IMG/VR virus record: IMGVR_UViG_3300020227_000034
Span: 1 to 53,722 of that record
DNA length: 53,722 bases
Source: a virus
Reading direction: 5' to 3' (one strand)
Positions 4,933 through 52,483 of the stretch are shown here, one piece after another. How positions within the stretch are numbered: position 1 is the stretch's first letter; the number at the start of each line of letters is the position of its first letter. Both the position numbers and the translations under genes were made by a program. Below the pieces are notes generated by a model. It worked only from the letters and a program-made list of their open reading frames with translations, was not told the DNA's origin and made no database searches.

Positions 4933-7860
4933 TTACAATTCTATGAATTGCTCTTCGGACGTTCCATCCTCGTAGTTAACTACTACTTTAATACCCACTT
5001 TTGCGTCTTGATGTTTTACAAGGTCCTCGGCAGCAATATAAGCAGAGAACGTATAGTTGTCTCGTGTTGATGGGTATACTGTTTGGTTAAGTTCTTGTTT
5101 AGTACCAGCACCACCGCCAACTATTTTAAACGAGTTATGGTTAGATACTCCGTTTAGGCTATCTACATATATATTACCCGAAGGTGTCCAATAATTCAAC
5201 CCCGAATCTGCTCGCGAGTTCTGTAGGTAGTTAAATATCATCATGTCCTGAATTTCTGTTTTATCTACGGCGTCGGCATTATCTAATCTACCTTCACCCT
5301 CTTGGCCTATAGCAGCGCCTTCATCACCGAGCTCTTTAATTTTTGTACTCAGTTGTAGTTTGGACTTCCACGGTTGTAGTAAATCTAATTTTCTGGACAC
5401 AATTTTAACTGGCACTAACTCGTTGAGCAAATCTTCTTCCTCAATTAAAGCTTGTGTTCTTAAATCAGGTATCTCGTGACTAAACTTAGGAAGCACAGAT
5501 AAATCTAAAATCTCGATTTCATATGACACAGTAGGCCTAGACCATTCAGCTAACTTTTCCACACCCTTCTCTTTTAAGTGAAAGATGTTATGGAACCGGT
5601 TATCCGTCCAGTCGGCTTCTTTAACAATTGCAGGCATCCCTCTATCTGTGAACCAAGAATAGTTCTCCAAGTAAGGGACGTTATTATTCGCAGGTGCAAT
5701 AGTTACTCCATTAGCACCGTAAGGGAATAACTTAGTAACAAGCCCTTGTGTGTTTATATTACGCTTGATACTCTTCATGTTTTTTCGCCTGCGGATGGAG
5801 TAGCCTGTGTCGATGTTTTTGTTTAGTAGGGACACTTGTTTGTTGACGTTATCAAATACAATGTCTCCGCCCCAAACCTCTTGGATACCCCGAATATGCT
5901 TAAGAGGATTCTGTTTCTTTTCTACCACATAATCCCGAAGTTCGAATCCGGGGTCAATAACACCGACAGTCCAACCCGTACCAGCAACTACATGTTTTAA
6001 TGGCTCATCAGGATAAACATCCCGAAAGTCTAAATTAGCTATTTTTGGTTTAGTTGCTAAGTCATACCAAGCAGCCTCACAATGGAACTCTCTAATCTTC
6101 TGCCCTTCCGCTGACACAGAGTCTGTGATATCTCTGATGTAAAATCTGTTATAAGGATTGCCTTTCTCATCTTCAATATCTACACGGAACTCATTGAAGA
6201 GCTCTTTAGCTTTTTGTGTGTACTTCATTCCGAAGGTCATAGTCTCATCACCATTATTAGCATCCTCTAAAATAGCAGATTCTAATTTATTTAGGTTGGC
6301 AACAAGCTTGTCGTTGTTATCGTACACCTTAGGTATCACCTTAACCACATTTACTACAGCTTGTGGTGATGTATCCTCAAAGGTTATTTCTTCTATAAGC
6401 GGCGTCCGCGCCCCATCATTACTTTTAAGTGTAAGCCTTACTTGAATGTGTCTGTAATTAGGCGATTGAATTCTACCTGCAGAGTCGACGACCAGCCAAT
6501 CGCTGAAGTTAATACCATCTGCAGATGTCCTGGTCTCAGCTACAAGTACTGTATAACCATATGGAGCATTACCCTTGATTTGTAACATACCAAGCTCTGG
6601 GAATGGATTCTGTAAATCAACTACAGGTGAAATATAAGTTCCCTCACTTACATACCGGCCACCTTCTTGTTTTAAAAGGATGGACCCTGGTTGAGAGCTA
6701 TAATCAATATTTACAGTTTCTACATCCCTGGAAGCCGTATAAAAGCTATGCAGGTCTGACGGTTGGTCATATGCATACTCTAAAAACCAACCAGAGAACC
6801 AGCCCTGAAACAAATAAGCACCATCCATATGTCCAAATGATAATGGCCTAGAATTTAGTGTTGTTGGTGGAGTATTAGCCCCATTATATAATAAGGGTAT
6901 CTCCACCGAACGCTCATTAACAGTTAGCATTAACGTAGTTGTACTTCGGTCATAGGCTAAAGCAATAAAATACTTCTGCCCAGCTACCAGTGATTCTCCA
7001 TAAATATTAGACCCATTTACTTGGTCGACGTTCTGGCTATAAATCCTGACATGTGGGATACCGTTATTTAGAGCTAGGTGAAATATAGGACTCTCACCAC
7101 TTCCCGACCTAGTAGTAGCAATCATAGCCCAAGTAGCCGATACATCAGATGCTGTAGGTTCAATCCAACCACCAATAGTCCAGCTATCCATATTTTCAAT
7201 GGGTTTTGATACTACAGCAGAGTCGAAGTTCTCAGATGTCTGCAATACTGAATCTACATAAAATTCAATATCATCTACGTAGACTAGGTTATCATTGCCA
7301 CCACCAGCACCATCGCGAATGTACTCTAGGCGGACAGTATGTGTTCCTTCTGTTAATGCTCGAGTGTATTGTGTCCAAGGGATTTCACCATCTACTTCAA
7401 TATCAATAACCCCATCAATATAAATACGTAAGTGGTCATAACGGTCCTCAGTCGATACATAATACATTAATCTGATTTCGCCTGTAGAACCAGTAGGTAC
7501 GTCAACAGTAAATTCTGTAGCTGAGATAGCTCCATAGTAATCATGCCCTGGATTTTGCGATACATAACAATGTGTACCAGAGTATGGGTGGGTAGTAGTT
7601 AATTCCCAATCCCCCTTAAAATTAAAGGCCGGATTCCAAATAACCTTGTTCTCTACGTTGACATAGGACCCATTCATTAAGATACCATCATCGTGTGCAT
7701 AATGACCCGTACCATAAAAAGTACCGTGGTAGCCATTACCAGAGTCATCAGTCCAAGTACCATCTGATAAGTTCCATAAAGCTCTAGTCTCTGGTTTATT
7801 TATTCTTTTACCTGAAAACTGTTGCATTGTTGTAATTATAGGGTATGCCATTATATCCAC
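4933..7860 (-). CDS. Tail tip protein (Tal-like; prophage tail endopeptidase-type region in the C-terminal half, LamG/concanavalin-like region in the N-terminal half)
   Basis: 975 aa, immediately after the Dit-like gene. The N-terminal WNLSDGTWTDDSGNGYHGTFYG is typical of LamG-type domains. Residues about 500 onward (VIPKVYDNNDKLVANL...RFYIRDITDS) resemble siphophage Tal N-terminal regions. Confidence 0.6.
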   Translation of the reverse strand: MDIMAYPIITTMQQFSGKRINKPETRALWNLSDGTWTDDSGNGYHGTFYGTGHYAHDDGILMNGSYVNVENKVIWNPAFNFKGDWELTTTHPYSGTHCYVSQNPGHDYYGAISATEFTVDVPTGSTGEIRLMYYVSTEDRYDHLRIYIDGVIDIEVDGEIPWTQYTRALTEGTHTVRLEYIRDGAGGGNDNLVYVDDIEFYVDSVLQTSENFDSAVVSKPIENMDSWTIGGWIEPTASDVSATWAMIATTRSGSGESPIFHLALNNGIPHVRIYSQNVDQVNGSNIYGESLVAGQKYFIALAYDRSTTTLMLTVNERSVEIPLLYNGANTPPTTLNSRPLSFGHMDGAYLFQGWFSGWFLEYAYDQPSDLHSFYTASRDVETVNIDYSSQPGSILLKQEGGRYVSEGTYISPVVDLQNPFPELGMLQIKGNAPYGYTVLVAETRTSADGINFSDWLVVDSAGRIQSPNYRHIQVRLTLKSNDGARTPLIEEITFEDTSPQAVVNVVKVIPKVYDNNDKLVANLNKLESAILEDANNGDETMTFGMKYTQKAKELFNEFRVDIEDEKGNPYNRFYIRDITDSVSAEGQKIREFHCEAAWYDLATKPKIANLDFRDVYPDEPLKHVVAGTGWTVGVIDPGFELRDYVVEKKQNPLKHIRGIQEVWGGDIVFDNVNKQVSLLNKNIDTGYSIRRRKNMKSIKRNINTQGLVTKLFPYGANGVTIAPANNNVPYLENYSWFTDRGMPAIVKEADWTDNRFHNIFHLKEKGVEKLAEWSRPTVSYEIEILDLSVLPKFSHEIPDLRTQALIEEEDLLNELVPVKIVSRKLDLLQPWKSKLQLSTKIKELGDEGAAIGQEGEGRLDNADAVDKTEIQDMMIFNYLQNSRADSGLNYWTPSGNIYVDSLNGVSNHNSFKIVGGGAGTKQELNQTVYPSTRDNYTFSAYIAAEDLVKHQDAKVGIKVVVNYEDGTSEEQFIEL
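5784..5795 (+). repeat. Oriented 12-mer TTCRCCTGCGGR, copy 1
   Basis: ttcgcctgcgga. Confidence 0.8.
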
Positions 7861-8651
7861 CTCGACTCAGGGTCAATCGTTATATTTGATATAGTGAAAT
7901 CAGTTGTCACCGCAATATTTACATTATTTGCTCCTAATGGTAACACTGGGAACACATTGTTCGTATCATTGAGAACATTACTTCTTTCTCCAACAGAGTT
8001 AACTTTATACGCAGTCATGTCATCTGTATAAACTGTAACCCTATCACCAGTAGATAAAGGACCGTCATAAGTGAAAGTTTTACCCCCAAAAGTGATATCT
8101 ACCTTACCTGAAGTATTAGTACCTTCGATGGTAATAACTGGTGCAGCCTCTTCATTACCTAAATTGTCTAGGTTGTAGTCGCCTGCGGAGGTTATATTGA
8201 GTGGTCCTTCTGTTCTAGAGTAGGCGTAAGGGTCTGGGGCTACCATTGATAGTGAGAACTCCCCTTGCCTAGCATTCTGGTTTAAAGCTTGTGCAGAACC
8301 GAACCGACGCGCATAGTACATTTTGTCAGGCTCCGTATCCCACCACAATTCACCCAGACCCTTCGCAGGTGAAAGCCAGGATGAAATAGCTCTACGCTTA
8401 GCTCTTAAATCAGATTCATCATTAGCACGTAACACCAAGTTGAATTCTATCTCTCTTACACCAAGTTGCCCACCAAAATCATAAGACCCTGCAGTACCAG
8501 GTCTGTCTTCTAAGGCATCTAAGGATTCTACTAGGAAATCAATTGGTGATTTAGTCAACCATAAATCAAAATCTCTCCCTGAATGTAACCCTTTATAAGT
8601 AAACCCGTACGTGTCTCTTGGTAAGCTACCTGCAATAATCATAGTTACCAC
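7851..8651 (-). CDS. Distal tail protein (Dit-like)
   Basis: 266 aa, directly downstream of the tape measure gene. RBS GGAGGTGG. Assigned by synteny. Confidence 0.65.
   Translation of the reverse strand: MVTMIIAGSLPRDTYGFTYKGLHSGRDFDLWLTKSPIDFLVESLDALEDRPGTAGSYDFGGQLGVREIEFNLVLRANDESDLRAKRRAISSWLSPAKGLGELWWDTEPDKMYYARRFGSAQALNQNARQGEFSLSMVAPDPYAYSRTEGPLNITSAGDYNLDNLGNEEAAPVITIEGTNTSGKVDITFGGKTFTYDGPLSTGDRVTVYTDDMTAYKVNSVGERSNVLNDTNNVFPVLPLGANNVNIAVTTDFTISNITIDPESRWI
8178..8189 (+). repeat. Oriented 12-mer, copy 2
   Basis: gtcgcctgcgga. Confidence 0.8.
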
Positions 8652-8698
8652 CTCCTACTATTATTATATCATATGTACAAAAAAATAGCCCTCGATTA

Positions 8699-11362
8699 TT
8701 AATCAAGGACTACCTCGCCTCTACCACGACCTTTATTACTTATGCGGTCATATAGCCTCTGTGAGATATCTTGGATGTCGCTAGTCTGTCTAACACTTCC
8801 TTTGAAGTTAACTAATGGGGCATTAAATGTGTTATTTACAACTGTGCTTGTTCCACGTTGTACTCTTGTTGTGTTATCTACATCAGTATCCACATTAGCC
8901 ATATCTTTGAACTTAGCAGCCTCTAATTCAGTTTGTGCTGTATTAACCACAGCTCGTGCCATTCCTTTAGAAGCTTCTTTTAGTTTCCGGGTGTTATCTA
9001 CGATACCGATTTCTAACCCTTCGGCAGTCCAAGCACCATATTGCTTGAATAACTTAGATGGTGATGAAATACCAAGTAAGTCTTCGATTGGACCTGGTAA
9101 CACTGATTTAGCCCAACCAACTACTTTGCTCTTCAACCAGTCACCGAGTCCACTAATACCTCGCCACAAACCTTTAACCATGTTACCACCAATACTAGCC
9201 ATATCACTAACTAGTCCACCTAACTTTCTAGGCACCGATAATACAAAGTTGGCAAACTCTCTTGCAGCGTTAGCTAAGCCGGAACCGATTTTACTTGCGA
9301 AGTTAACCATCCCACTACCAATCTTACCTAGGATGTTACTTACAAAGCTTCCAATCTTACCGACCACGTTACTTACAAATTTAGTGAAACTACTTATACC
9401 ACTAGATACCATACTTCGTATTTTAGAGGCAAAGCTCTTAACAAAACCAGTAATCTTACCAATAATGTCTTTTACAAACTTAGCTATTAACCCAATACCT
9501 TTGTTAATAAATTTCCCTAAGACACCAGCAATCTTACCTACGAACCATAAACTAAACATACCCTTTATGAAGTCTACAGCTCCCATGAAGATTTGCTTTA
9601 TAGCATCCCACATACCCTTCCAGTCACCTGTGAATAGGGCAGCGAAAAATTTAACAACACCGGCAAGAATATTGAATGCTCCCTTAAACACATTCACTAC
9701 GGCATCTAGATAAAATTTCACTGTGTCATAAATGAATGGTAGGACAAAACTGATAATGGATTGGATAACATTCATTACCGTAGTAACTACCGGCTGAATT
9801 GTTTTCCATCTCTCTTTTATATAGTTGACCAGCTCTAGTATAATAGGCATTATGAAGGCCTTCACTTCTTGGAACTTCGCCACCACTAAGTCCCAGGTGG
9901 CTATTACAAAATCACGGAGTCTACCGAAGTTAGTTTGCCATGCTGCATAGATTAATTCTGCTATACCTATGATAGCAGTTAGTACACCTATAACAGGTAA
10001 GATGGCGGCAGACACAGCGGGTAATACTGTACCACTTAAAAATCCGAACGCAGTTATCAATCCGGGTAGTGCTGTACCAATCAGTAATAGAATAGGACCT
10101 ACAAGTAAAAGAATCCCGGCTGTTAATGCAGCCACCGCCGCAACCACCGTCATGATAGTAGGGTGCGCGTTAGCGAAAGCCCTAATCCACTCACCGACCT
10201 TAGCTATTACTTGACCTAAAGCTCTTACTACAGGTGCTAGCGCTTCACCGATTGGTGCAATAGCGAGTTGAGCTGCACGCATGGCTATAGTCCATTCTTT
10301 ACTCATTGTCATTCCTTGTTGATGAACTCTATCCGTAGCACCAGCTACACCATCAAGCTCACCACCCATAGCATTTAACGTAGGGATCAATGTTCCACGT
10401 AGGTCTTCACCCATTGCGCCAAATAAGTTGAATGCTATTGTGGATTGTTCTGTTTTACTCTCCACATCACCGAACGCACTGGATATTTCAGATAAAGCTT
10501 GTTTAGAGGACATAGCCCCACTATCTAACTGCGCTACGAACTCTTTTGCTCTTTCAGCACCGAATAACATTTCTAATGCTTCCGCGGTAGTTTTGGAACC
10601 ATCGGTAATTCTGTTCTCAAACTCTTTAAAAGCATCCGCCATCTTGTCAGCATTAAATGAACCGTTCTGTAATCCCTGAACCAAGATATTGGCGAACTCA
10701 CCTGCGGAATAGCCCATCTCTGAGAACTGATTCGAGTACTCCCAGAATGTGTCAAGTAAATCTTGAGCTCTGTCTCCGGACTGTTGAGCTGCAGAAGCTA
10801 CAATATTAAAAGCCTCTCGACCGTCAATACCAAAGTTGTTAGAGATTTGTGATGCTGCTCTAGCGGCTTCGGTGTACTCATAGCCAAAGGCTTCGGACAA
10901 TGTAAGTGCCTGCTTAGTAAGACCCTCAGCTTCCTTCGCAGATGCATTAAACTCTTTTTGTACAAAGGCCATAACATTGGCCACTTCATTCATGTCTTGT
11001 CCGAACCCTTGAGCGTAGACATTTTGAATAGCCTGACTAAAACCTTCTAATTCTTGGCCTGTAATATTGGTTTGTGAGCTGAATCGTCTAGTAGCACTCT
11101 CGGCTTCAGCATATGCTGTAACAGCAACGGCAAGTCCACCCGCAATGGTTGCACCTGCTGATGTCGCTGCTGCACCGGCTCTCTTATATCCATCGGACAT
11201 CTTTTGCATGGCTTGCTTATGTTGATTTGCTAATTCCTGTCCTTGCTTCTGTATTTCCTGGTCAGCTGATTGTAGCATCTCTTTTGCCTTGGCTGTATCT
11301 TTTCGTAGTCCATCCAAAGCTAATCGAAATTCAGTATATACAGCACCAAGACTCTCAGCCAT
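8699..11362 (-). CDS. Tail tape measure protein
   Basis: 887 aa. Helical N-terminus, central multi-TM/Gly-Ala-Ile-rich region, repetitive KIGSFVSNILGKIGSGMVNFASKIGSG segments. Follows the chaperone pair. RBS GGGAGG. Confidence 0.9.
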   Translation of the reverse strand: MAESLGAVYTEFRLALDGLRKDTAKAKEMLQSADQEIQKQGQELANQHKQAMQKMSDGYKRAGAAATSAGATIAGGLAVAVTAYAEAESATRRFSSQTNITGQELEGFSQAIQNVYAQGFGQDMNEVANVMAFVQKEFNASAKEAEGLTKQALTLSEAFGYEYTEAARAASQISNNFGIDGREAFNIVASAAQQSGDRAQDLLDTFWEYSNQFSEMGYSAGEFANILVQGLQNGSFNADKMADAFKEFENRITDGSKTTAEALEMLFGAERAKEFVAQLDSGAMSSKQALSEISSAFGDVESKTEQSTIAFNLFGAMGEDLRGTLIPTLNAMGGELDGVAGATDRVHQQGMTMSKEWTIAMRAAQLAIAPIGEALAPVVRALGQVIAKVGEWIRAFANAHPTIMTVVAAVAALTAGILLLVGPILLLIGTALPGLITAFGFLSGTVLPAVSAAILPVIGVLTAIIGIAELIYAAWQTNFGRLRDFVIATWDLVVAKFQEVKAFIMPIILELVNYIKERWKTIQPVVTTVMNVIQSIISFVLPFIYDTVKFYLDAVVNVFKGAFNILAGVVKFFAALFTGDWKGMWDAIKQIFMGAVDFIKGMFSLWFVGKIAGVLGKFINKGIGLIAKFVKDIIGKITGFVKSFASKIRSMVSSGISSFTKFVSNVVGKIGSFVSNILGKIGSGMVNFASKIGSGLANAAREFANFVLSVPRKLGGLVSDMASIGGNMVKGLWRGISGLGDWLKSKVVGWAKSVLPGPIEDLLGISSPSKLFKQYGAWTAEGLEIGIVDNTRKLKEASKGMARAVVNTAQTELEAAKFKDMANVDTDVDNTTRVQRGTSTVVNNTFNAPLVNFKGSVRQTSDIQDISQRLYDRISNKGRGRGEVVLD
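10697..10708 (+). repeat. Oriented 12-mer, copy 3
   Basis: ctcacctgcgga. Confidence 0.8.
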
Positions 11363-12694: not shown

Positions 12695-13084
12695 TTAGTC
12701 TCTTATAAGAGCTATCTCAAATTCGATAGGCCCATTGGTTATCTTCTTAAATTCTGGGTCATAGAAATCTTCCCCCATACCAATGTAAGTAAGCGCAATA
12801 TCACCTGCAGGTGTTGGAATGCCGTTCTTGAATGCTGCGATTACTTCCTCGGCTATTTCGTCGACCGTAATATAATTGTGTGGGTCGGCGTAAGGCCAAA
12901 CTTCAATTACTTTGTCGAAAGCCATAGAAATCTCAGCAGCAGTTTCAATCCCGACTTTAACAACTAGAAAAGAATCTTTCCTTTTAGGACCTGCCATAAA
13001 TGGTTGATATACTTGACCATCTACAGATGGTACATTGGCTTTAAGATGATTTATTGCTTCCTTTCTCATCAGCACCATCCCCAT
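12695..13084 (-). CDS. Tail completion / tail terminator protein
   Basis: 129 aa, immediately upstream of the major tail gene. Assigned by synteny only. The exact start is uncertain (ATG at 13084, 13078 or 13069). Confidence 0.5.
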   Translation of the reverse strand: MGMVLMRKEAINHLKANVPSVDGQVYQPFMAGPKRKDSFLVVKVGIETAAEISMAFDKVIEVWPYADPHNYITVDEIAEEVIAAFKNGIPTPAGDIALTYIGMGEDFYDPEFKKITNGPIEFEIALIRD

Positions 13085-13960: not shown

Positions 13961-14319
13961 CCTGTGTAATCTCCTTCCAATCTAGACCTGTCGGGGATTC
14001 CTGTGTGATGTTCGCCTGCGGAATTACTTGGTCTCGCCTTTGCAATTACTGTTCTGGACCCTTTGTTTAAATAAAACTTATACATTGACATTGCGTGGTT
14101 ATACTCTTTCTCTTTTGCAAAAGAATAAGACTCAGTACCTACGCTATAAGACTGTATACCAGTTGGTGCTAATCCTGAAGCTTTTTCCATCCACACTTCT
14201 GCGGCTGCTCGGTAGATATTTCCGCTATAGACGTCTATATACCCTTGCAGTTCTTCATCGGTATAATTAGACTCAGAAGGCTCGTCAATGAGCCTCCGAA
14301 GTCTTCTTACATTATCCAT
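13954..14319 (-). CDS. Head-tail connector (gp6-like / DNA-packaging adaptor position)
   Basis: 121 aa. Its start shares a base with the capsid gene stop. Assigned by synteny. Confidence 0.55.
   Translation of the reverse strand: MDNVRRLRRLIDEPSESNYTDEELQGYIDVYSGNIYRAAAEVWMEKASGLAPTGIQSYSVGTESYSFAKEKEYNHAMSMYKFYLNKGSRTVIAKARPSNSAGEHHTGIPDRSRLEGDYTGW
14011..14022 (+). repeat. Oriented 12-mer, copy 4
   Basis: ttcgcctgcgga. Confidence 0.8.
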
Positions 14320-15754: not shown

Positions 15755-16870
15755 TTAGTTTAAGCGGTTACGCTTAACACGTACTGAAGTGAATTGCCTG
15801 GAGCTGTTTCGGTTATTTGACCTATGATTAGTTACATTGTCTGTCATCAAGTTGTCAAACATTTTCTTTATAGATGGCTTCTCTAATAGCGCATCCATTT
15901 CACCAGCAATCTCTTTCTTTTCAGTCTTAGTAGGTACGAACATTTCACCTGCCAGGGCTTGTGCTTCTTGATTTTCTGGGAACTTCTCTTTAATTACCTC
16001 GTCCACCACCCTTTTCTGGTTTGCATTTTCTTGGTCAGCTTCAATCTTTTTAAGATTCTTGATTGACGCAATAACCTCTTCGAATGTTGCATCTTCTTTC
16101 AAACCAAGCTCTTGGCGTACTTGTGGTAATTGCGCTTCTAAGTTCTCCACTTCTTGAATAAAGTTAGCATCCATCTCTCCGACTAACTCACGTGTAGCAC
16201 CTTTATTTGATGCTAAGAATGTACGCAATGCTGCAATCAATTCTTCTTTAGTCATATCACTATTACCTCCCTCATCCATTTCACCTTTAATATCGACTAC
16301 TTTAGTTTGCATTCCTGGACGTCCCTTAGGAGTCCAATCAATAGACATCAGGTTACAACCCACTACTTTGGTTTCACCTTTTTCTTTCTTCAACTGCATT
16401 TCGCCGAATATCGAAGTTTCATTTATTCGTTTGGTTTTTATCCATCTACGTAGTTTCTTCTCGCTAGGGTCCACATAACCTCTAAAATAGGCAGTATTCG
16501 TTTTGTCATCGTACTTAGCACCAATCCAGTGTGTAGCTGGGTCCACAAATTCATGTGAGACATTCTCTGCTTTCTGATGACCTTTAAAACCGTTTGGTGA
16601 GTCGCTGTTAACTTGGTCAACGATTGACTTCACTACTTCTGGTGTATAGTTCCAACCTCTTTTAGACTTACCTGCTTGCATGGAAACAGCTACTTCCATA
16701 GGTTCTTCATCGCCTTCAATAAGCTTGTCATAGTCTACGGAGGAAGACACCGGTATGTCATCGACCTTAACATCACTCTCCAACGCAAGACCAGCCATGG
16801 ACATTTCACCTGTTATCACAGCCCCATCTTTATATTGTTTGAGTTTGTTTAAGAGTTCTTCCCAGTCCAT
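15755..16870 (-). CDS. Prohead protease (HK97/S78-like N-terminal domain) fused to a coiled-coil scaffolding domain
   Basis: 371 aa. GHQK...THWIGAKYDDKTNTAYFRGYVDPSEKKLRRWIKTKRINETSIFG follows the S78 pattern (His ... IG ... D.(S/T)E ... SIGF-like Ser). The C-terminal half is charged and helical. Contains six GEM motifs. Confidence 0.55.
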   Translation of the reverse strand: MDWEELLNKLKQYKDGAVITGEMSMAGLALESDVKVDDIPVSSSVDYDKLIEGDEEPMEVAVSMQAGKSKRGWNYTPEVVKSIVDQVNSDSPNGFKGHQKAENVSHEFVDPATHWIGAKYDDKTNTAYFRGYVDPSEKKLRRWIKTKRINETSIFGEMQLKKEKGETKVVGCNLMSIDWTPKGRPGMQTKVVDIKGEMDEGGNSDMTKEELIAALRTFLASNKGATRELVGEMDANFIQEVENLEAQLPQVRQELGLKEDATFEEVIASIKNLKKIEADQENANQKRVVDEVIKEKFPENQEAQALAGEMFVPTKTEKKEIAGEMDALLEKPSIKKMFDNLMTDNVTNHRSNNRNSSRQFTSVRVKRNRLN

Positions 16871-17430: not shown

Positions 17431-18417
17431 TTATGAAGCATTAGGCACGTATACATCTTGGTACCATTTTTCTAGTCTTCTATTTGAGTTTGGATTGTTA
17501 ACCCATGCAATAGCCTCGTCGGTTGCGGATGATAGGGATTTCACCTGCGGGAGCTGTGAGCACAAACAATTCGGGTGTGGTGTCATTGGCTCGCTACCAG
17601 CAGGGTGAAAACCTTCTAAGTCGTCACATATATCCTTAACTTGGTGTCTGCTAGATAATCTCCAGATTATACCTTCATAAAATGGATTGTTATTTCCGGA
17701 TGAATAAGTAGATTCAGCGAAGGCACTAGATAGTTCTGTCCTAGCTAATCGAAGAGCATTGTACTTAACATCTTTTGGAACGGTACCACCTAAACGCTTA
17801 TACAGGTCTTTGGATTCCCCGACTGTTAAGGCATCAGCCCCATCTGCTAAATATTTTTCTAATGTAATAGCCATTTCCCTGGCATCTACATCTCCCTTGA
17901 CAATCGCACGCTGTACTATGCCTAGGGATTTCTGCGTGTTAGTCCAAACTCTTTGTGACAGAGTTAACCCGTTACGTTTTCTAGTATAAATAGCCCTCAC
18001 AGTATCCGCTGAAACTGCTTGATAGGCTGCAGTGAGTCCAGAACTAGTAACGGCATCTATCCCAGCCTCTGTGAATATTTTGTCTAGCATATCCTTTTGA
18101 GCCATGATAGCTATACGCGCCGTATTTTCGATATTACGCCTAAGCAATGCTGTGTATTCTTGTTGTAAATTAGAACGGATAGAACGCATGATGTCTCTAA
18201 TCCGCTCTTTATTTAAACCAGATGCTTGACGTAATTCTTTAGCAAGTTCCTTTGCGACTTCTTCATACAGTTTGATAATGTCCAATTCAGAACGCAGCCT
18301 CAAATCGATGTAATCGCGCCTTGCTTTAACAAAGATACTAGCATATTCTGGAGGCATATTATCTTTAACTACACTAAGACTAGCTTTGGCTAATTTCCTC
18401 GTAAACTCGTTTGGCAT
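17431..18417 (-). CDS. Minor head protein (SPP1 gp7 / Mu F-like head morphogenesis protein)
   Basis: 328 aa. C-terminal NPFYEGIIWRLSSRHQVKDICDDLEG...HPNCLCSQLP matches the gp7/Mu-F family signature region. Confidence 0.8.
   Translation of the reverse strand: MPNEFTRKLAKASLSVVKDNMPPEYASIFVKARRDYIDLRLRSELDIIKLYEEVAKELAKELRQASGLNKERIRDIMRSIRSNLQQEYTALLRRNIENTARIAIMAQKDMLDKIFTEAGIDAVTSSGLTAAYQAVSADTVRAIYTRKRNGLTLSQRVWTNTQKSLGIVQRAIVKGDVDAREMAITLEKYLADGADALTVGESKDLYKRLGGTVPKDVKYNALRLARTELSSAFAESTYSSGNNNPFYEGIIWRLSSRHQVKDICDDLEGFHPAGSEPMTPHPNCLCSQLPQVKSLSSATDEAIAWVNNPNSNRRLEKWYQDVYVPNAS
17540..17551 (+). repeat. Oriented 12-mer, copy 5
   Basis: ttcacctgcggg. Confidence 0.8.
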
Positions 18418-25994: not shown

Positions 25995-26006
25995 ATCACC
26001 TGCGGA
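25995..26006 (+). repeat. Oriented 12-mer, copy 7 (intergenic)
   Basis: atcacctgcgga. Confidence 0.8.
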
Positions 26007-40805: not shown

Positions 40806-40810
40806 GTTAT

Positions 40811-41566
40811 CTACACCTTTCTCTTATTAGCCCATACAAGGGTATGAAGTTGTGGTAATGGTTTGATATCATTAGCTTCTGGGTCATCTATAACTTTATT
40901 CCAAAGCCAGTCTAATTTAGTAAGAAGACGTCCGGAGATATCGCCTTCTTCGTGTGCATCCTCGTTTCCGACTGAAACAAAGAATTCCGCCTGCGGGTAT
41001 CTGTTGTGTACGTACTTGGCGTGCTCGAAGTCTTCGTCATCGAATACAACGACCTTCAGTGTATAATTAGTATCTGCTTCATCCAATTTTTCAATGATGT
41101 CATCCAGTCGCTGCCAGTTAGTTTTCATTAATGAACTCGGTGGCTTAGGACTGATTGTTAGATCATCGATATCACGGAACCAATCCTTCCAGAATGACCC
41201 TTGTGTTTCTAATCCTACCTTTATACCTGACTCGTGACACATATTGATTAGGTCCTGCATTGGCTGTGCTATCAATGCTGGGTTACCTCCAGAAATAGTT
41301 ACGTGGTCAAAGTTTAATTTACCTGACTCTTTATCTGTACCTAATTCCAGTAAGGTCTCAAATACATCTTCAGCTGATTTCAGTTGTGCCTTCTCTTCCC
41401 CATTCCAAGTGAATGCTGAGTCACACCATGCACAACTGTAATCACAACCACCTGTCCTAACGAACATTGTCTTACGTCCGATGACCATTCCTTCACCTTG
41501 AATAGTCGGTCCAAATATTTCCATAATAGGCATACGTTTTGGTTTACGTGCTTTAGTCTCTGCCAT
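40811..41566 (-). CDS. queE: 7-carboxy-7-deazaguanine synthase (radical SAM)
   Basis: 251 aa. Radical-SAM cluster motif [10 protein letters not shown], an N-terminal QGEG segment and the GGNP motif. Confidence 0.85.
40986..40997 (+). repeat. Oriented 12-mer, copy 10
   Basis: tccgcctgcggg. Confidence 0.8.
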
Positions 41567-41694
41567 GTTTGTCCTCCTCTACTTTGTCTAACCAGTTTTG
41601 TAACTTGGTGCATTGTTTATTCTCTCGGACACCGAATCTATGCAAATATTCAGGTACCCCACCAAGTGCTTTGAAATGGAGTACCTCTTTAATA

Positions 41695-42727: not shown

Positions 42728-42742
42728 TATTGTATTCGCCCC

Positions 42743-43399
42743 TTATTTTTTGTATTTGATAGGGTCTTCATAACCCGCTTCTTCGAATGCTGCTAATCTT
42801 AGTTGACACGTAGGACAAGTACCACATGAAGGTACAGTTCCTCTATAACATGAATGAGTTAATTCTAGTGGTGCACCTATTCTCATGGCTTCTTTAACTA
42901 CATCAGATTTATGTTTCTTTAAGAATGGTGCCCTTATTTCCACATTACCAGCTGTACCATGTTTCAATGCTGCAAACATATATATGAAGTAAACTGCTGT
43001 AGTATCTGGATAACCTCCGTGGTCCTCTGCATGTGCACCATAATAAATGTAGTCAGCATTAATACTGTCTGCTACACCTGCGGCTATGGATAAGAAGATG
43101 GAGTTCCTCGCTGGTACGTATGTTGCGCCGACCGAACCTTTATCTTGGTCGTCTTTTATGTCTTCACCGTGCTGTAATAATGAAGAGTTGAAATTTGCGA
43201 ATGTTGACGATAGGTCAAATTCTGTATATGAATCTAACTCCAACACTTTAGCTATCTTCCTAGCACTCTCCATTTCTACGTCATGTTTTTGCCCGTAATA
43301 CATGTTTAAGGCATGTACCTCATCGTTCTCTCTTTTTGCTATAGCTGCGCAGGTTGTGGAATCCATTCCACCAGATAATAATACTAGTGCCTTACTCAT
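42743..43399 (-). CDS. queC: 7-cyano-7-deazaguanine (preQ0) synthase
   Basis: The PP-loop motif LLSGGMDST and a C-terminal CxxCxxC zinc cluster (CGTCPTCQLR). Start chosen at 43399 with RBS GAGGAGG. Confidence 0.9.
   Translation of the reverse strand: MSKALVLLSGGMDSTTCAAIAKRENDEVHALNMYYGQKHDVEMESARKIAKVLELDSYTEFDLSSTFANFNSSLLQHGEDIKDDQDKGSVGATYVPARNSIFLSIAAGVADSINADYIYYGAHAEDHGGYPDTTAVYFIYMFAALKHGTAGNVEIRAPFLKKHKSDVVKEAMRIGAPLELTHSCYRGTVPSCGTCPTCQLRLAAFEEAGYEDPIKYKK
43073..43084 (+). repeat. Oriented 12-mer, copy 11
   Basis: tacacctgcggc. Confidence 0.8.
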
Positions 43400-43621: not shown

Positions 43622-43650
43622 ATTATAACATATGCGAGCTCTAGAGTCAA
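43622..43650 (-). promoter_or_regulatory. Promoter TTGACT-N17-TATAAT for the que operon
   Basis: Minus strand reads aagggTTGACTctagagctcgcatatgtTATAAT. The -35 overlaps the primase-helicase stop codon. Confidence 0.7.
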
Positions 43651-46589
43651 CCCTTATTCAATATATTCTGACGTTCTTTTTCGGTCATCTTTTTAAACTG
43701 TTGATACTGCTCGTGCCATTTATGAGTGGTCCTATAAGAGTTACCAGCCGTACCATCATAGATCAAGTCCATGTCTACCAGTGCACTGATAATATCACGT
43801 GCCTCTTCGGTATCCATACCCAACCCTTCTTCCAAGTTTTTAGATGTCCAGTTCTTAGCTTTACGACCGTCAATATACTTGGACTCTTTTTGGTGGGTAA
43901 CAAACCACAGCATGATTTCTTCTTTCTGTTTGTCGGTCACTCTATGACGTGATTGTTCTTCTTGTGCTAGGCCCCAATAATCGAAGGCTGGTTTCTTAAA
44001 TAACTCGTCAACAAACTCGGCAATGAACTCTACATGTTCTGGTTTGACTATTACCTTTTCCATCTCTTCATCGGTACTAAATAATCTAGCAGCACATGCA
44101 ACTGACATCCTTGCTAGTTTGATACGTAACGAGTTTTGCTCAAAAATAGGTATACTACATTCGTACCTATCACCTAGGATACTCGCCTGCCGGAGTATGG
44201 TCTTTACTGCTTCGGGTTCGAAATAGACTTTGTCGTTGTCCTGAGATAGACGTCCTCTAGCATTCCTACTCCAGGTCCACAAAATCAACTGTTGACACAA
44301 TTCGCTGGTATATGTTTGAGGCTCTCTTGGTTTGTCATCCAGGACTTGGTTGATTACTTCTTCAGGGACCTCATCCTTACTGACACCCATAGCGAAATCA
44401 AATCTAGCAATGTCCTCTGCTTGGTTGACTAGGTCTTTAACTGAACGGACACCGTAATCGAAATCCTTCAGCATCTTGCCACCCCTAGGGTTGGACATCC
44501 ATATGGCTCTTGTTCTGGCATATGCTTGACCCTGTTTGGCTTTATTGATTTCTACTACCCCACGTGAACGCATACCTGATAGCTCACCAAACATATCTTT
44601 GTCTAATCCGGATGCCTCATCAATGATTAATAGCTTGCGGTCATTCATTGGGAATTTACCCCATGTAATCATCCACTGACCACCATTCTTCGTTTCTACT
44701 GTACCAGTCAAACCAGTGACGCGTGTACCTTCACCTTCGAACATATCACCTTGTTGGTAGTACCGTGCTAAGTACTCGGCCGTCTCTGACTTACCAGTAC
44801 GTGGGTCACCAATAACTAGCATATCAATCCAACCCCTGTGTAGTAGCTTTCTATTAAAGTGGAAACGTAAAACAGAATGGTAAGCTAAGTCGTAAGCTAT
44901 AATCAAGTCACGTCTACCCCATATTTGAGTCCATAACTCTAGGTCAGCAGCAATCTCATACATTTTATCTTTAACCGATTGACCTTCTGCAGGTTGAAAT
45001 ACTTTGAGGCGTTCAAGCTCTTCCTTAGTTGGGTTGAACTTATCAAAGCTTTCTTGCACTGCTGTAGCTTCTAATATTAGATATGCAGCCGTACCATCAT
45101 TAGGACTAGTTGTTCTTAATGCATTAAATATATAGCTTCGGTTTGACTTAGCTGACATACCTTTTCTAGGATAAACATAATAAGCTGTCTGCGCATCCAA
45201 CTCGTCTTCTTTTATTTCATTACTGAACTTGGATATGTCCGGTGAAATATATAAGGTCTCGACGTTGTAAATCTCCTTCTCTTCTATCTTAGGTTTAGGA
45301 CACTTGGCAGGTACACCAATAGTTTGTTTAATTCGGTTCTCCCGTTGTTCATCATTAGCACCTATATAAGTTAAGACATCTCTAGTCCGGCCGAAATTGA
45401 AGTCGTACCCTTCCTTGATTTGTTCTTGTGTTAAAGACGCTAGTATACAACCCTGGCACTGTTTGTTTTCTGGGTCGTAAGATTTACAGGATACATTAAC
45501 TTGCTTAGGAGAAGAATATGGTTGAGCCTCCCTACCTTGAACTCTAGCTTCTATTCGTACACCAGTGTTATTATACCCTGGGTCATTAGTAGCTTCGGTC
45601 AAAGTAGTCTCTGTAAATTCTAGGTCATCCAAATTCTCTTGTTCCTGCTCTTCTAATTTACGTTCCACTGCAGGTACAAACTTCTTGCCTTTTTTGAGTA
45701 CCTCCCGTTGGAAGTCTGAATACTCTTTACCTCCCTTCATTATGTAATCAGTAAAGTCCCAACCCTCTTTTGGTATGGAGGTGACATAAATGTCTTTGGC
45801 ATACTCTTTTAAAGCATTACCAACCCGGTTTGCACCATCACGACCTGCGTTATCTGAGTCATAACAAATAAAGACTATCTTGTTTGTAAACCAATGACCT
45901 ACTTCCTTCGGCCATTGACCTGCTCCACCTGTTTGTGTTACGGCCGGGATGTTATGTTGTCTTGCTAATACAGTATCAGGTTCGCCCTCAAATATTACAA
46001 CCCAACCTGAATTCCAAAAAGTATTATCTAGAGGCCATATCATTGATTTAGTATAGGCACCCTTCATATTGGTGAATTTAGCCTTCTTAGCACCCATCTT
46101 GTATCTTCTTATATTAATTACATCGCCTCTAGCTGAATACACAGGGAATGTATATCTGTTGTTAGCCGATTCATATCCGATTTGAAACTCTGATATGGAT
46201 TCTAGGTTAATTCCCCGTTTGTCAATAAATGTAGCTAATGCTTCTTCACTGTTAAGTAGCTCTTGATGTAAATCATTTACAATTGTCTTATCTATTGGTA
46301 TTCCCAACTGTCCAGTGTTTTCATACTTAGCCTTAAACGATAGGGCATCCTTCAATGGGATATCAAACCACTCAGTCATCCAATCAGCAATGTGCCCCCC
46401 TCCGTTGACACCGGCATCACATGCTTGACATTTCCATCGTCCTGTATATAAGTTAATGTACATGGAAGGATTTGAATCATTATGAAAAGGGCATTTAATG
46501 GGCAGCTCTCCGTCATCAGGCATATTAGTTATATCAATGAATCGGGAGTAAAAATCTCTGTAGTCAATATTCTCTTCCGACATACCCAT
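43647..46589 (-). CDS. DNA primase (CHC2 zinc finger + TOPRIM) fused to an MCM-like AAA+ helicase
   Basis: 980 aa. CPFHNDSNPSMYINLYTGRWKCQAC is a CHC2 finger. EGEPD...YDSDNAGRDG is TOPRIM. GDPRTGKSE (Walker A), IIDEASGLDKDM (Walker B), WMSNPRGG (sensor 1) and ARFDF (Arg finger) parallel the MCM motifs GDPGxxKSQ, IDEFDKM, AAANP and SRFDL. Confidence 0.8.
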   Translation of the reverse strand: MGMSEENIDYRDFYSRFIDITNMPDDGELPIKCPFHNDSNPSMYINLYTGRWKCQACDAGVNGGGHIADWMTEWFDIPLKDALSFKAKYENTGQLGIPIDKTIVNDLHQELLNSEEALATFIDKRGINLESISEFQIGYESANNRYTFPVYSARGDVINIRRYKMGAKKAKFTNMKGAYTKSMIWPLDNTFWNSGWVVIFEGEPDTVLARQHNIPAVTQTGGAGQWPKEVGHWFTNKIVFICYDSDNAGRDGANRVGNALKEYAKDIYVTSIPKEGWDFTDYIMKGGKEYSDFQREVLKKGKKFVPAVERKLEEQEQENLDDLEFTETTLTEATNDPGYNNTGVRIEARVQGREAQPYSSPKQVNVSCKSYDPENKQCQGCILASLTQEQIKEGYDFNFGRTRDVLTYIGANDEQRENRIKQTIGVPAKCPKPKIEEKEIYNVETLYISPDISKFSNEIKEDELDAQTAYYVYPRKGMSAKSNRSYIFNALRTTSPNDGTAAYLILEATAVQESFDKFNPTKEELERLKVFQPAEGQSVKDKMYEIAADLELWTQIWGRRDLIIAYDLAYHSVLRFHFNRKLLHRGWIDMLVIGDPRTGKSETAEYLARYYQQGDMFEGEGTRVTGLTGTVETKNGGQWMITWGKFPMNDRKLLIIDEASGLDKDMFGELSGMRSRGVVEINKAKQGQAYARTRAIWMSNPRGGKMLKDFDYGVRSVKDLVNQAEDIARFDFAMGVSKDEVPEEVINQVLDDKPREPQTYTSELCQQLILWTWSRNARGRLSQDNDKVYFEPEAVKTILRQASILGDRYECSIPIFEQNSLRIKLARMSVACAARLFSTDEEMEKVIVKPEHVEFIAEFVDELFKKPAFDYWGLAQEEQSRHRVTDKQKEEIMLWFVTHQKESKYIDGRKAKNWTSKNLEEGLGMDTEEARDIISALVDMDLIYDGTAGNSYRTTHKWHEQYQQFKKMTEKERQNILNKG

Positions 46590-46595: not shown

Positions 46596-47195
46596 TTATT
46601 TTAGTGTTGGTTCTTTATCGTCAAAGTATTCACCATAAGCTAAACAATCATCACACTCCCATTTACCGTCAGGGTAAATAACAATATCAGAAACCCCGCA
46701 GTCTGGGTTAATACATTTATCTGGTGGTCCGAATTCGCCTGCCGAGGTTGGTTCATTGATTGGCGCCTCCGCCCCGTGTTGTTCCGCCTGTAATTCATCT
46801 ATCCAGGAAGTGTCTGCTACTATCTCTTTTGGTGTTGTGTTAGCTTTCATTTTATCTTCATATTCAGTGATGATACTCTTCTTACGTTTTGGTAAATGCT
46901 CACCGTATTCCACTTTAATATCACCATCAAATAAATCCTCTACAAAGCGATAAATGATTCTCTTTAAATTCGCTGTAGAGTCTTCCTCCAACTCTTCCAC
47001 TTTCGTTTTGTCAAAGAAGAAGGTCATTGCTATATAGTCAGGCTCTTCTTGGTGGCCCATAGAACGTAACTGCCTAACATATTGTGACACCCTGGAGGGT
47101 GTGGTTCCTAGTTCTTCTGCTATATCTTTCTGACTCATTCCTTCTGCTAACAACTCTGTCACATATTCAAGTTTATCTAAAGTGGTTTGCCTCAT
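46596..47195 (-). CDS. HTH (sigma-70 region 4 / LuxR-like) DNA-binding protein with a C-terminal zinc ribbon
   Basis: 199 aa. LAEGMSQKDIAEELGTTPSRVSQYVRQL is a classic HTH. C-terminal CINPDC...CDDC. Directly downstream of the box-containing regulatory region and promoter 47220..47248. Confidence 0.65.
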   Translation of the reverse strand: MRQTTLDKLEYVTELLAEGMSQKDIAEELGTTPSRVSQYVRQLRSMGHQEEPDYIAMTFFFDKTKVEELEEDSTANLKRIIYRFVEDLFDGDIKVEYGEHLPKRKKSIITEYEDKMKANTTPKEIVADTSWIDELQAEQHGAEAPINEPTSAGEFGPPDKCINPDCGVSDIVIYPDGKWECDDCLAYGEYFDDKEPTLK

Positions 47196-48269: not shown

Positions 48270-49244
48270 TTATTTTTCGGTTGTTTTCTCCTCATCACCT
48301 AGGTCAATTCCCTTTTTGGTAGTCTCTGTTTTCTTAACTGGCTCTTGCTTTTTGGTAGTCGTAGTAGGTTTCTTTACCTTACCCTTACGTTTAGCTTCCC
48401 ACGCATCGATAATCTTACCTACGGTTGGCATTTTTAAACCAGCACCCAACGACTGTGTTCTATCTTTTAACATTTTATGCTTACCAAACGGACGTGTATA
48501 TAACTGGTTTTGGAATTTACCTTTATCATCATTACCTTCCAAATAACCAACGATGTCTACATACCCAGGAACTTCTCTTGCTAGTTTACCTGGTAGAGAT
48601 GGTAGCATCTGTATTTCACCAGTAGTTTCATCCTTGTCAGTTTGCAGGTGAACTAAAAAGATAGTATGCATTTTAAGAGAACGGAACTTACGTATCACCT
48701 GCCGAAGTTGATTACTTGACTTGCCCCACTCACGTACGGATGGCACGTCTGGGTCTCTATCAGGGTGTTCAGAGATTACATCATCCATCAAGCTGCTCAT
48801 GTTGACTTTTTGTAACTCTGTAAGCTGGTCAATTACTACTGACCGATACATTGGCGGTTCAAATTTAAGAGCTTCCTCTTTCTTCTCTACACCAAATAGG
48901 ACTGCTAGTTGCATACGAGCTTTCTTTTTCTCAGTAGCTTCCGTTTTATCATTAAAGAAGATATCGCGGTAATGTACATATTTATATAAGAAATCATACA
49001 GCTCGAGTATATCTTCGAAGCTCTGAATCTCAGTATAATCGACACCCATCTCTTCCAATGATAGTTTACCAGCTTCCACATCCGCAATTAGTACTTTACC
49101 TGTTTCAGGGTGCTTATCAGCAGACCCACCAAACATAGTCTTCCCTGCACCAGGCTCACCATAAACAATAATGTTTAACCAGTGTTGTGCTAGTTCCTGA
49201 ACATCCTTCTGGGACGTATTTTTAATTTTAATTTTCATTGCCAC
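48270..49244 (-). CDS. Sak4-like (AAA_24) recombination ATPase
   Basis: 324 aa with Walker A GEPGAGKT near the N-terminus and a Lys/Thr-rich C-terminal tail. Confidence 0.65.
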   Translation of the reverse strand: MAMKIKIKNTSQKDVQELAQHWLNIIVYGEPGAGKTMFGGSADKHPETGKVLIADVEAGKLSLEEMGVDYTEIQSFEDILELYDFLYKYVHYRDIFFNDKTEATEKKKARMQLAVLFGVEKKEEALKFEPPMYRSVVIDQLTELQKVNMSSLMDDVISEHPDRDPDVPSVREWGKSSNQLRQVIRKFRSLKMHTIFLVHLQTDKDETTGEIQMLPSLPGKLAREVPGYVDIVGYLEGNDDKGKFQNQLYTRPFGKHKMLKDRTQSLGAGLKMPTVGKIIDAWEAKRKGKVKKPTTTTKKQEPVKKTETTKKGIDLGDEEKTTEK

Positions 49245-50337: not shown

Positions 50338-50383
50338 GAATAAACCTCCTCCTCTAAATTTATGTTTCCCTCTTACAATATTA

Positions 50384-50412
50384 ATTATATGGGATATTAG
50401 CTCAAAAGGCAA
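50384..50412 (-). promoter_or_regulatory. Promoter TTGCCT-N17-TATAAT
   Basis: Minus strand reads aagggTTGCCTtttgagctaatatcccaTATAAT. Confidence 0.6.
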
Positions 50413-52098: not shown

Positions 52099-52483
52099 AT
52101 GTTAGAAATACGTAGCCATGCCTAATTGCATCCCTTGCATGCCTGGAAGTAGATACTTTGAATACACCTAAATCTCTTAGCTTATCATTATCAAAAAATT
52201 CCTTATCAGAAGGTTGCTGGCTGTAAAATAATATATTATTGAAATAGCAGTGCGCTTTAATTACCCCAATCACTTCTACTTCTAAAAAAGAATCCCAAAT
52301 CTTTTGTTTAGCCTTCCAAGGGTATAATTTGAACGATTCAAATAATACCAGGTCAACTTTAGCTTGGTTTATCATTTCCGGTATGTCTTTCCAGTCCGGG
52401 GATTCACCTGCGGAGATTACGTGGTCGTCTTCGAATAGAGCCCAGCCTGTTGTATGTCCTGGATCAAATACTAGGAATCTCAT
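52040..52483 (-). CDS. RuvC-like Holliday junction resolvase
   Basis: 147 aa. The N-terminal MRFLVFDPGHTTGWALFED has the RNase H-fold first-strand Asp motif. RBS AAGGAGG. Confidence 0.6.
   Translation of the reverse strand: MRFLVFDPGHTTGWALFEDDHVISAGESPDWKDIPEMINQAKVDLVLFESFKLYPWKAKQKIWDSFLEVEVIGVIKAHCYFNNILFYSQQPSDKEFFDNDKLRDLGVFKVSTSRHARDAIRHGYVFLTFGEGKGEHSADIIRRVQKD
52403..52414 (+). repeat. Oriented 12-mer, copy 12
   Basis: ttcacctgcgga. Confidence 0.8.

Follow-up and report, generated by a model that had tools for sequence, protein, structure and literature searches.

What keeps copies of one asymmetric word of 9 to 12 nucleotides dispersed through a phage genome, mostly on one strand and mostly inside genes? 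The question is raised by IMG/VR virus record IMGVR_UViG_3300020227_000034, analysed over its whole length of 53,722 nucleotides (the window). The first 55 bases (1-55) are repeated exactly at 53668-53722, an assembler overlap that makes the window a circularly closed, complete phage genome of about 53,667 bp (~53.67 kb). It has a GC content of 40% and about 63 open reading frames (ORFs), covering 91% of the sequence, every one of them on the minus strand. The heptamer CCTGCGG of the plus strand therefore reads YCCGCAGGYGAA on the coding strand. In what follows the motif is found to be under nucleotide-level selection, conserved with turnover across a clade of phages, not enriched in host-type DNA, evenly spaced in a strand-specific manner, and free of associated secondary structure. 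Our preferred version of its function, to which we give a probability of roughly 30%, is a Chi-like self signal that controls a phage helicase-nuclease.

The motif and its sites

CCTGCGG occurs 12 times on the plus strand (5788, 8182, 10701, 14015, 17544, 19593, 25999, 35304, 39607, 40990, 43077 and 52407) and twice on the minus strand (13789 and 53299), a recount that agrees with an earlier, sequence-only reading of this DNA. Dinucleotide shuffles give a mean of 1.86 copies for both strands together, and 14 were reached in none of 100. The coding-strand form of the window copies is YCCGCAGGYG(A/T)(A/T). The starts that had been given for the surrounding 12-mers hold for all sites except one, which lies at 39603 rather than 39602. 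The 12-mer consensus TTCRCCTGCGGR is matched exactly by six of the 12 copies, while five depart from it by one mismatch and one by two; the shorter form TCRCCTGCGG is indeed present in nine. The frame distribution was also described correctly: eight copies lie in the frame xCC-GCA-GGY-Gxx (SAGE four times, and SAGD, SAGV, AAGV and PAGE), three are in other frames (YPQAE, QLPQVK and IRRRK), and one is intergenic. These strict copies bear no positional relation to gene starts or ends. They are the following, together with the only full motif of reverse orientation in the window:

5784..5795, minus strand: strict site TCCGCAGGCGAA, frame giving IRRRK; orthologous copy in phages Youna2 and BSP7
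8178..8189, minus strand: strict site TCCGCAGGCGAC, SAGD; orthologous copy in BSP7
10697..10708, minus strand: strict site TCCGCAGGTGAG, SAGE, in a tape-measure-like gene
14011..14022, minus strand: strict site TCCGCAGGCGAA, SAGE
17540..17551, minus strand: strict site CCCGCAGGTGAA, other frame, QLPQVK
19589..19600, minus strand: strict site TCCGCAGGTGAA, SAGE
25995..26006, minus strand: strict site TCCGCAGGTGAT, intergenic
35300..35311, minus strand: strict site CCCGCAGGTGAA, PAGE, at the C-terminus of the DNA polymerase; orthologous copy in BSP7
39603..39614, minus strand: strict site TCCGCAGGTGTA, SAGV, in the MazG-like gene
40986..40997, minus strand: strict site CCCGCAGGCGGA, other frame, YPQAE, in QueE
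43073..43084, minus strand: strict site GCCGCAGGTGTA, AAGV, in QueC
52403..52414, minus strand: strict site TCCGCAGGTGAA, SAGE; orthologous copy in Youna2 and BSP7
53299..53307, plus strand: reverse-orientation full motif, CCGCAGGTG on the template strand

The motif is asymmetric, with neither dyad nor direct-repeat structure. The flanks of the sites (20 nt on either side) hold no conserved second half-site, conservation stopping beyond about 12 bp, and the site windows fold no better than GC-matched controls.

Selection on the nucleotide sequence

A maximal-order Markov null proved too permissive for a rare 7-mer and was replaced by codon shuffles, dinucleotide-preserving shuffles, and an order-3 Markov model. 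Under per-gene synonymous codon shuffling the window is expected to hold 3.1-3.3 copies of CCGCAGG against the 12 observed, a count reached in 0 of 2000 shuffles; for CCGCAGGYG, 12 copies stand against 1.4-1.6 expected and a maximum of 5. A shuffle that keeps the protein, the codon usage and the dinucleotides still leaves 12 copies of CCGCAGRYG against 2.4. By the order-3 Markov model CCGCAGGTG is the top-ranked 9-mer of the window (8 versus 0.16, p=1e-11). The one-mismatch neighbours of the motif are mostly at or below their expected counts. Judged by codon-shuffle Poisson p-values only, one 7-mer by itself falls short of the Bonferroni threshold; the case for enrichment holds because all top words converge, because the longer word reaches p=1e-11, and because the result is replicated in independent genomes. 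For coding-strand CCGCAGRYG, observed and codon-shuffled counts are 12/2.15 in the window, 20/4.41 in Youna2, 23/4.43 in BSP7, and 7/1.38 and 4/0.18 in two further relatives, the IMG/VR contigs L003 and L004.

The choice of codons points the same way. Among the 22 window tetrapeptides able to encode the motif, eight use the motif codons where 0.63 would be expected, and such usage is found at 8/22, 12/22 and 14/32 compatible tetrapeptides with 0.5-0.9 expected. The copies are, besides, distributed over three frames and intergenic sequence. Selection thus acts on the DNA and not on a peptide, as the sequence-only reading had argued. A peptide or codon-pair artefact is rejected, given that the excess survives shuffles preserving protein, codons and dinucleotides and given the use of motif codons at compatible tetrapeptides.

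Conservation and turnover across the clade

The sole isolate relatives of the window are Weizmannia phage Youna2 and the Bacillus subtilis phages BSP7, BSTP5/8/10/12 and BSP19, which are syntenic with it, yet only about 67% identical over the half that can be aligned. L003 and L004 were added as independent relatives; L086, being Youna2 itself (99.3% identical), was left out of the count of independent genomes. Pooled counts below refer to the three complete genomes (window, Youna2 and BSP7), and the five lineages are these plus L003 and L004. Pattern searches with the terminase large subunit (TerL) in metagenome contigs and genome contigs brought no relatives, nor did searches of viral contigs with a tail protein or a primase search with a single-sequence query give matches; in the literature on this phage clade we found nothing beyond the Youna2 isolation paper.

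The clade consensus is hYT-CCGCAG-R-Y-G-A-A (YCCGCAGRYGA). In each genome of the clade with enough repeated 9-mers to be ranked (window, Youna2, BSP7 and L003) the motif is the top 9-mer. By the order-3 Markov model this is CTCCGCAGG in Youna2 (9 versus 0.15, p=1e-13) and CCGCAGATG in BSP7 (11 versus 0.17, p=7e-17), while in L003 it is TCTCCGCAG (4 versus 0.04, p=8e-8), with CCGCAGATG near the top there too. In the 9-mer scan this enrichment is on a par with that of promoter -10 and ribosome-binding-site words. The sequence-only reading had held that its finding would fall if codon-preserving shuffles gave similar counts, if a full scan gave comparable numbers on both strands, or if close relatives lacked the motif. 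None of the three was found: shuffled CCGCAGGYG never exceeded five copies, the heptamer stands at 12 to 2, and the motif is present in Youna2, BSP7, L003 and L004.

Individual sites are less constant than the motif. Only two of the 12 strict window sites have an orthologous copy in Youna2 and four in BSP7, many aligned orthologous positions being without it; Youna2 and BSP7 have nine motif positions in common. Sites therefore turn over while copy number and spacing are maintained. Between the close pair BSP7 and BSP19, which differ at 2.05% of positions, one single-nucleotide difference falls within 234 motif bases where 4.8 are expected. In Bacillales chromosomal DNA (13 loci or genomes, 277 kb, indicative only because these are not the actual host species) there are five motif copies versus 4.4 expected, or 0.018 per kb; in the phage clade the density is 0.24-0.83 per kb. 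The same motif is present in phages of B. subtilis and of W. coagulans. It is best read as a signal specific to the phage lineage and not to the host chromosome.

The Youna2 scan also returned TATAATA(A), strongly over-represented and strand-specific (25 on the coding strand versus 4), and AGGAGGAAT (10 versus 0). These are sigma-A-type -10 boxes and ribosome-binding sites, and serve as internal positive controls for the k-mer scan.

Orientation and even spacing

Strict polarity, which the sequence-only reading had taken for a hallmark, does not hold. Forward copies pooled over the three complete genomes number 55 versus 10.8 expected (5.1-fold), and reverse full-motif copies are enriched about as strongly (14 versus 3.3, 4.3-fold). 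In BSP7 the reverse copies number 8 versus 1.35-1.5 (p about 1e-4, and 8e-5 in one test); by lineage the five counts are 1, 5, 8, 4 and 1. The core GCAGGTG(AA) is likewise enriched in the opposite orientation, template-strand GCAGGYG occurring 13 times in the window versus 4.9 expected. Coding alone predicts forward-to-reverse ratios of 8:1, 2.9:1 and 3.3:1 in the three complete genomes, and those observed are 12:1, 4:1 and 2.9:1; because they match this coding-aware expectation, count polarity is not an independent signal. The window has no point at which orientation switches, reverse copies being interspersed.

The spacing is more informative. When the motif is relaxed to coding-strand GCAGGYG, the window holds 27 sites, namely the 12 strict ones and variants that are mostly prefixed by CCT or CCG. 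Among the latter are the CCTGCCGG variants noticed by the sequence-only reading, which do exist near the places given for them, at 4223, 30127, 32973 and 44184. The relaxed sites are:

2133..2142, minus strand: CCT-GCAGGTG
4223..4232, minus strand: CCG-GCAGGTG
11152..11158, minus strand: GCAGGTG with prefix TCA, the weakest member
12802..12811, minus strand: CCT-GCAGGTG, overlapping a reverse copy through the palindrome CCTGCAGG
15946..15955, minus strand: CTG-GCAGGTG
20999..21008, minus strand: CCT-GCAGGCG
28194..28203, minus strand: CCT-GCAGGCG
30127..30136, minus strand: CCG-GCAGGCG
32105..32114, minus strand: CCT-GCAGGTG
32973..32982, minus strand: CCG-GCAGGTG
37438..37447, minus strand: CCT-GCAGGTG
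44184..44193, minus strand: CCG-GCAGGCG
46736..46745, minus strand: TCG-GCAGGCG
48696..48705, minus strand: TCG-GCAGGTG
53500..53509, minus strand: CTT-GCAGGTG

The mean gap in this series is 1,976 bp, with a coefficient of variation (CV) of 0.44 versus 0.95 +/- 0.17 under the null (P<5e-5), the lowest among some 1,870 degenerate 7-mers of similar copy number. With no prior choice of word, the most even 5-mer is GCAGG in both the window and Youna2, and the most even 6-mer is TCCGCA in Youna2 and CCGCAG in BSP7. Each genome carries about 25 same-strand sites, some 2 kb apart. Equal-sized subsets drawn at random from the pooled sites of both orientations are less regular than the forward series (window, P<1e-4; BSP7, P=0.0008-0.06; Youna2, P=0.04-0.07). 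Reverse copies show no avoidance of forward ones (10 of 20 are within 350 bp versus 6.2 expected), and their own series tend to evenness (Youna2, CV 0.46, P=0.006). The motif is therefore probably read strand-specifically, a view supported by the spacing rather than by the counts.

Two overlapping words are also in excess in the window: the SbfI/Sse8387I palindrome CCTGCAGG (8 versus about 1.2 expected from codon shuffles) and CACCTGC/GCAGGTG, an AarI/BspMI-type site (30 copies). We attribute both to overlapping members of the motif family and not to restriction-site effects. Strong hairpins (-26 to -28 kcal/mol) arise where a forward and a reverse copy are 18-31 bp apart, in Youna2 (33265-33331, identical in L086 at 1049-1115) and in L003 (9864-9943). 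The Youna2 hairpin is directly upstream of the ribosome-binding site of the endolysin gene and is not followed by a T-run; these hairpins of two motif copies may serve in processing or stability.

A Chi-like self signal as the favoured explanation

A compact signal of about 12 bp, under selection, conserved in five lineages, specific to the phages, and evenly spaced strand by strand, leads us to infer that it is read on one strand by a moving phage enzyme. The reader would be phage-encoded, would track along one strand, and would be a helicase-nuclease. On this explanation the motif would be a lineage-specific recognition signal, kept by selection at about one copy per 2 kb of the sense strand, and a phage enzyme that tracks along DNA reading one strand would give each strand its own evenly spaced series. 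The helicase-nuclease would enter at free ends arising from concatemer processing or headful packaging and run against the direction of transcription, the sense strand being the 3'-ended one. At each motif it would be attenuated or switched, so that phage DNA would be spared and motif-free host DNA would not. If packaging follows late transcription, by analogy with SPP1/P22-type packaging, the motif would be on the strand that is 3'-ended at the free end left by the pac cut. The candidate readers are an SNF2-type helicase (50434-52098) and a Cas4/AddB-type PD-(D/E)XK exonuclease (49261-50412); the genes for the helicase, the Cas4-like nuclease, Sak4 and a single-stranded DNA-binding protein (SSB) are encoded together. 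The gene content of the window is as follows:

Replication and recombination module, minus strand: SNF2-type helicase, Cas4-like PD-(D/E)XK exonuclease, Sak4-like annealase, DUF669 SSB, helix-turn-helix (HTH) protein, DnaG-type primase-helicase
Deazaguanine module and neighbours, minus strand: QueC, QueD, QueE, GTP cyclohydrolase I, MazG-like protein, deoxynucleoside kinase (dNK)/thymidylate-kinase-like protein, a 260-aa protein of no assigned function, PolA
40173-43438, minus strand: FolE, QueD, QueE and QueC, the preQ0 pathway
Nucleotide metabolism, minus strand: ribonucleotide reductase, dUTPase, ThyX
Late genes, minus strand: terminase, SPP1-type portal, head, tail and lysis genes

Several points weigh against this explanation. 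The relaxed definitions (GCAGGYG and SGCAGRYG) were picked after inspecting the data, and the evenness of the strict 9-mer, significant in Youna2 and BSP7, is not so in the window (n=12, P=0.11). The direction of packaging and the mode of replication of this phage are assumed, the reader is a candidate, and the case is built on sequence. Known Chi sites are host signals of 5-8 nt; we know of no phage-encoded Chi system, and even spacing is not, to our knowledge, a property of Chi. The equal fold-enrichment in both orientations would also fit a duplex-binding protein blind to orientation, although the spacing tests argue against such a protein. Finally, the probable presence of 7-deazaguanine in the DNA (see below) could alter the recognition of the motif's four to five G's by any protein.

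Over-represented oligomers read on one strand (Chi, the FtsK-orienting polar sequences or KOPS, uptake signal sequences or USS, and nick sites) have in every case opened the way to a mechanism of DNA handling. Here the signal belongs to a phage lineage and not to its host. Selection on it is strong enough to prevail over codon preference in five lineages whose silent sites have diverged to saturation, and no comparable word of these genomes is as regularly spaced. Should a phage nuclease or replisome recognise phage DNA as self by this motif, that would represent a new principle of phage genome architecture, and in practice would limit how such phages can be recoded or engineered. Direct testing is possible, since there are cultured isolates in Youna2 and the BSP7 group. 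A broader proposition, which we regard as rather doubtful, is that this lineage has a self oligomer of its own, as may others with the same replication, recombination and deazaguanine modules, and that phage machinery reads it strand-specifically, be it as an analogue of Chi or as a loading signal by which a DpdA3-like enzyme or the replisome would work processively.

The distant phage L089 (Logan SRR20662469_7819, 32% GC) has the same helicase, exonuclease, Sak4, SSB, Que, DpdA-like and PolA modules. Between 159 and 15720 it carries a dispersed motif of its own, CGTACCA(G)TG with a G/T-rich tail after it (CGTACCAGTGGTGGTGT is one instance), with 11 sites in 16 kb, seven on the plus strand and four on the minus strand; CGTACCAGT has 4 copies versus 0.04 expected. 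That its dispersed motif is a different one hints that reader and motif co-evolve.

A DpdA-like enzyme and predicted 7-deazaguanine DNA

The 260-aa protein at 37728-38510 (minus strand) has no Pfam or PHROG function. Its orthologues are Youna2 UKM63149 (47850-48620 in record L001) and BSP7_057 (43772-44560 in record L002). Structure prediction gives a β/α barrel resembling that of tRNA-guanine transglycosylases (predicted local distance difference test score, pLDDT, 70.5; predicted template-modelling score, pTM, 0.72), and tRNA-guanine transglycosylases are also its top PDB matches in Foldseek (E=2e-4). Among the best viral matches is one of 259 aa from Cellulophaga phage phiST (E=1e-12); DpdA3, a subfamily linked to complete replacement of G, was defined in that phage (PMC10516641). 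The family profile matches a DNA-guanine transglycosylase (PDB 7ui4) over the segment HLLG...siDtsnP (E=0.005), and homologues are always found inside FolE/QueD/QueE/QueC/MazG clusters adjoining replication genes. From these four lines (barrel model, PDB matches, phiST match, and profile with gene context) we assign the protein as a predicted, hitherto unannotated, DpdA-like DNA-guanine transglycosylase. In combination with FolE, QueD, QueE and QueC it predicts 7-deazaguanine DNA, which this clade of Bacillus and Weizmannia phages probably has; as far as can be told, both identity and prediction are new to the sequence records. The link to modified G raised by the sequence-only reading has a real basis for this reason, namely that a DpdA-like transglycosylase and the preQ0 pathway are encoded.

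A MazG-like pyrophosphatase (39069-39764, minus strand) and a dNK/thymidylate-kinase-like gene (38510-39136, minus strand), the latter not in Youna2 or BSP7, are flanked by the Que cluster on one side and by the DpdA-like gene and PolA on the other. This layout of MazG, dNK, DpdA-like gene and PolA mirrors that described for phiST, and may bear on whether deazaguanine enters the DNA before or after replication.

Comparison with known systems and rival explanations

The Chi sites of B. subtilis (AddAB) and of RecBCD are AGCGG and GCTGGTGG, respectively. Like the motif, Chi is short, asymmetric, G-rich, over-represented, found mostly on one strand and embedded in coding sequence; a translocating enzyme recognises it on a single strand as a mark of self DNA, and the motif core GCAGGTG is one base from GCTGGTG. 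It differs in length (5-8 nt against 9-12), and the motif is specific to a phage lineage, evenly spaced, not enriched in Bacillales chromosomes, and here has a helicase-nuclease that is only putative as its reader. Host Chi, which had been proposed for these sites, is rejected: the motif differs from AGCGG (its complement has TGCGG) and is common to phages of different hosts, and AGCGG is unskewed and below expectation in the phages (15 versus 27.8; 12 versus 24.4). USS and the related DNA uptake sequences (DUS), like KOPS and the SpoIIIE recognition sequences (SRS), are over-represented 8-12-mers tolerated inside genes in preferred frames, and USS are reported to be evenly spaced; the motif, too, is an over-represented, evenly spaced, coding-embedded 9-12-mer. 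However, USS and DUS are host chromosomal signals, equal on both strands and tied to competence, and the motif is not enriched in Bacillales loci; we know of no sequence specificity in Bacillus competence. KOPS and SRS (GGGNAGGG and GAGAAGGG) are host signals whose orientation switches at ori and dif. Their identity with the motif, also suggested earlier, is rejected on account of the different sequence (GAGAAGGG occurs 0-3 times in the phages), the interspersed reverse copies without a switch point, and the lack of enrichment in Bacillales DNA. Among the earlier proposals, a site for some phage function is the live option.

Apart from the preferred Chi-like signal, the phage function with most in its favour is priming, which we nevertheless hold to be improbable. 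Here the DnaG-type (Zn-finger and TOPRIM) primase-helicase (43647-46589) would begin primers of the lagging strand at motif copies of either strand, whichever serves as lagging template, the degenerate Y giving a purine-initiated start, the invariant 3' G being the cryptic nucleotide, and CCGCAG templating a GC-rich primer 5'-RYCUGCGG. The same-strand spacing of about 2 kb is a typical Okazaki length, if unusually regular; forks moving in the direction of transcription would have the sense strand as their lagging template; and enrichment on both strands would fit forks running in either direction, as in recombination-dependent replication, for which Sak4, exonuclease and SSB are present. Primase sites (GTC-based pentamers in T7, CTG for DnaG) are read on the single-stranded lagging template. 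The R-Y-G end of the motif, with G at +8 in 76 of 87 forward sites, resembles the primase trinucleotides that have a cryptic 3' base (E. coli CTG, T7 GTC), a likeness by analogy that is compatible with priming. Yet the known DnaG- and T7-type primases recognise 3-5 nt, their sites are not reported as over-represented, evenly spaced genome signals, and we know of no genome-wide embedded primase signal of 9-12 nt. Absence from host DNA would not be required of a primase signal, and the distant L008 and L009 have a homologous primase-helicase without the motif, which at about 25% identity is weak evidence. Localized single-strand nicks introduced into virion DNA by a putative late phage nickase, as in T5, tf and phiKMV-like phages, are a doubtful explanation as well, for all that they are the closest documented phenomenon: known sites are lineage-specific, partly degenerate sequences of 7-9 bp or longer, which number 8-17 in a genome, fall within genes and for the most part on a single strand, recur in relatives and have an enigmatic function (PMC3517423). 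The consensus is 5'-R/GCGCRGG in T5 and 5'-TACT/RTGMC in phage tf. Nick sites of T5, tf/LUZ24-like and phiKMV-like phages share with the motif a degenerate repeated consensus, some 10-20 copies inside genes, strand bias and presence in relatives; the numbers in our genomes resemble theirs (12-23 strict copies, of which 75-92% are on one strand), and some positions are conserved among relatives, as are the nine common to Youna2 and BSP7. Against nicking, the known sets keep strictly to one strand and are not evenly spaced, whereas reverse copies of our motif, recognised from sequence, are enriched about fourfold; some lie 18-31 bp from forward ones, where nicking of both would give staggered double-strand breaks, and PHROG and Pfam scans of nearly all ORFs recognised no HNH or nickase-like gene.

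The near-equal fold-enrichment of the two orientations could instead reflect a phage protein that binds duplex DNA irrespective of orientation, for genome organisation, condensation or global regulation. Conserved HTH proteins are encoded, the candidates being a LuxR/sigma-r4-like HTH protein (46596-47195) and a Rho_N/HTH protein (33943-34608), and the sites are spread genome-wide irrespective of gene boundaries. We consider this unlikely, as regularity belongs to the same-strand series and is lower for pooled sites, reverse copies do not avoid forward ones, and the motif lacks dyad or direct-repeat structure. It is less likely still that the motif is a target, loading site or exclusion site of the DpdA-like transglycosylase. 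Some DpdA subfamilies modify fewer than 0.1% of G's (PMC10516641), which here would amount to a few dozen sites per genome, and the enzyme is encoded together with FolE, QueD, QueE and QueC. On the other hand, mapped DpdA contexts are GA and GGC, of 2-3 nt and not 9-12-mers (PMC7544227, PMC10484667); the viral structural match from phiST could be DpdA3, of the subfamily for complete replacement of G; the more distant L088 and L089 have the same DpdA-like/Que module without the motif; and a modification target needs neither over-representation nor even spacing. From the mapped contexts and from L088 and L089, a DpdA target motif is rejected as the main explanation. Most unlikely of all is a signal in RNA (processing, stability or ribosome interaction, AGGUGA being close to the Shine-Dalgarno core) or a by-product of codon-pair or peptide bias. 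All genes being co-oriented, every forward copy is in mRNA, two thirds of the copies are in one frame, and the T variant contains AGGTGA; but antisense copies are enriched (significantly so in BSP7), the Y position is C as often as T, which breaks the Shine-Dalgarno match, copies occur in all frames and between genes with no relation to gene ends, and the excess outlasts the most conservative shuffles.

In L088 (Logan SRR27686864_6388) the enriched word was considered as a dispersed signal and rejected, for it forms a local iteron cluster: about 15 iterons CTTGAATC(G/A)C in both orientations at 8430-8830, in a divergent intergenic region between the structural and replication modules, which is likely an origin or regulatory region.

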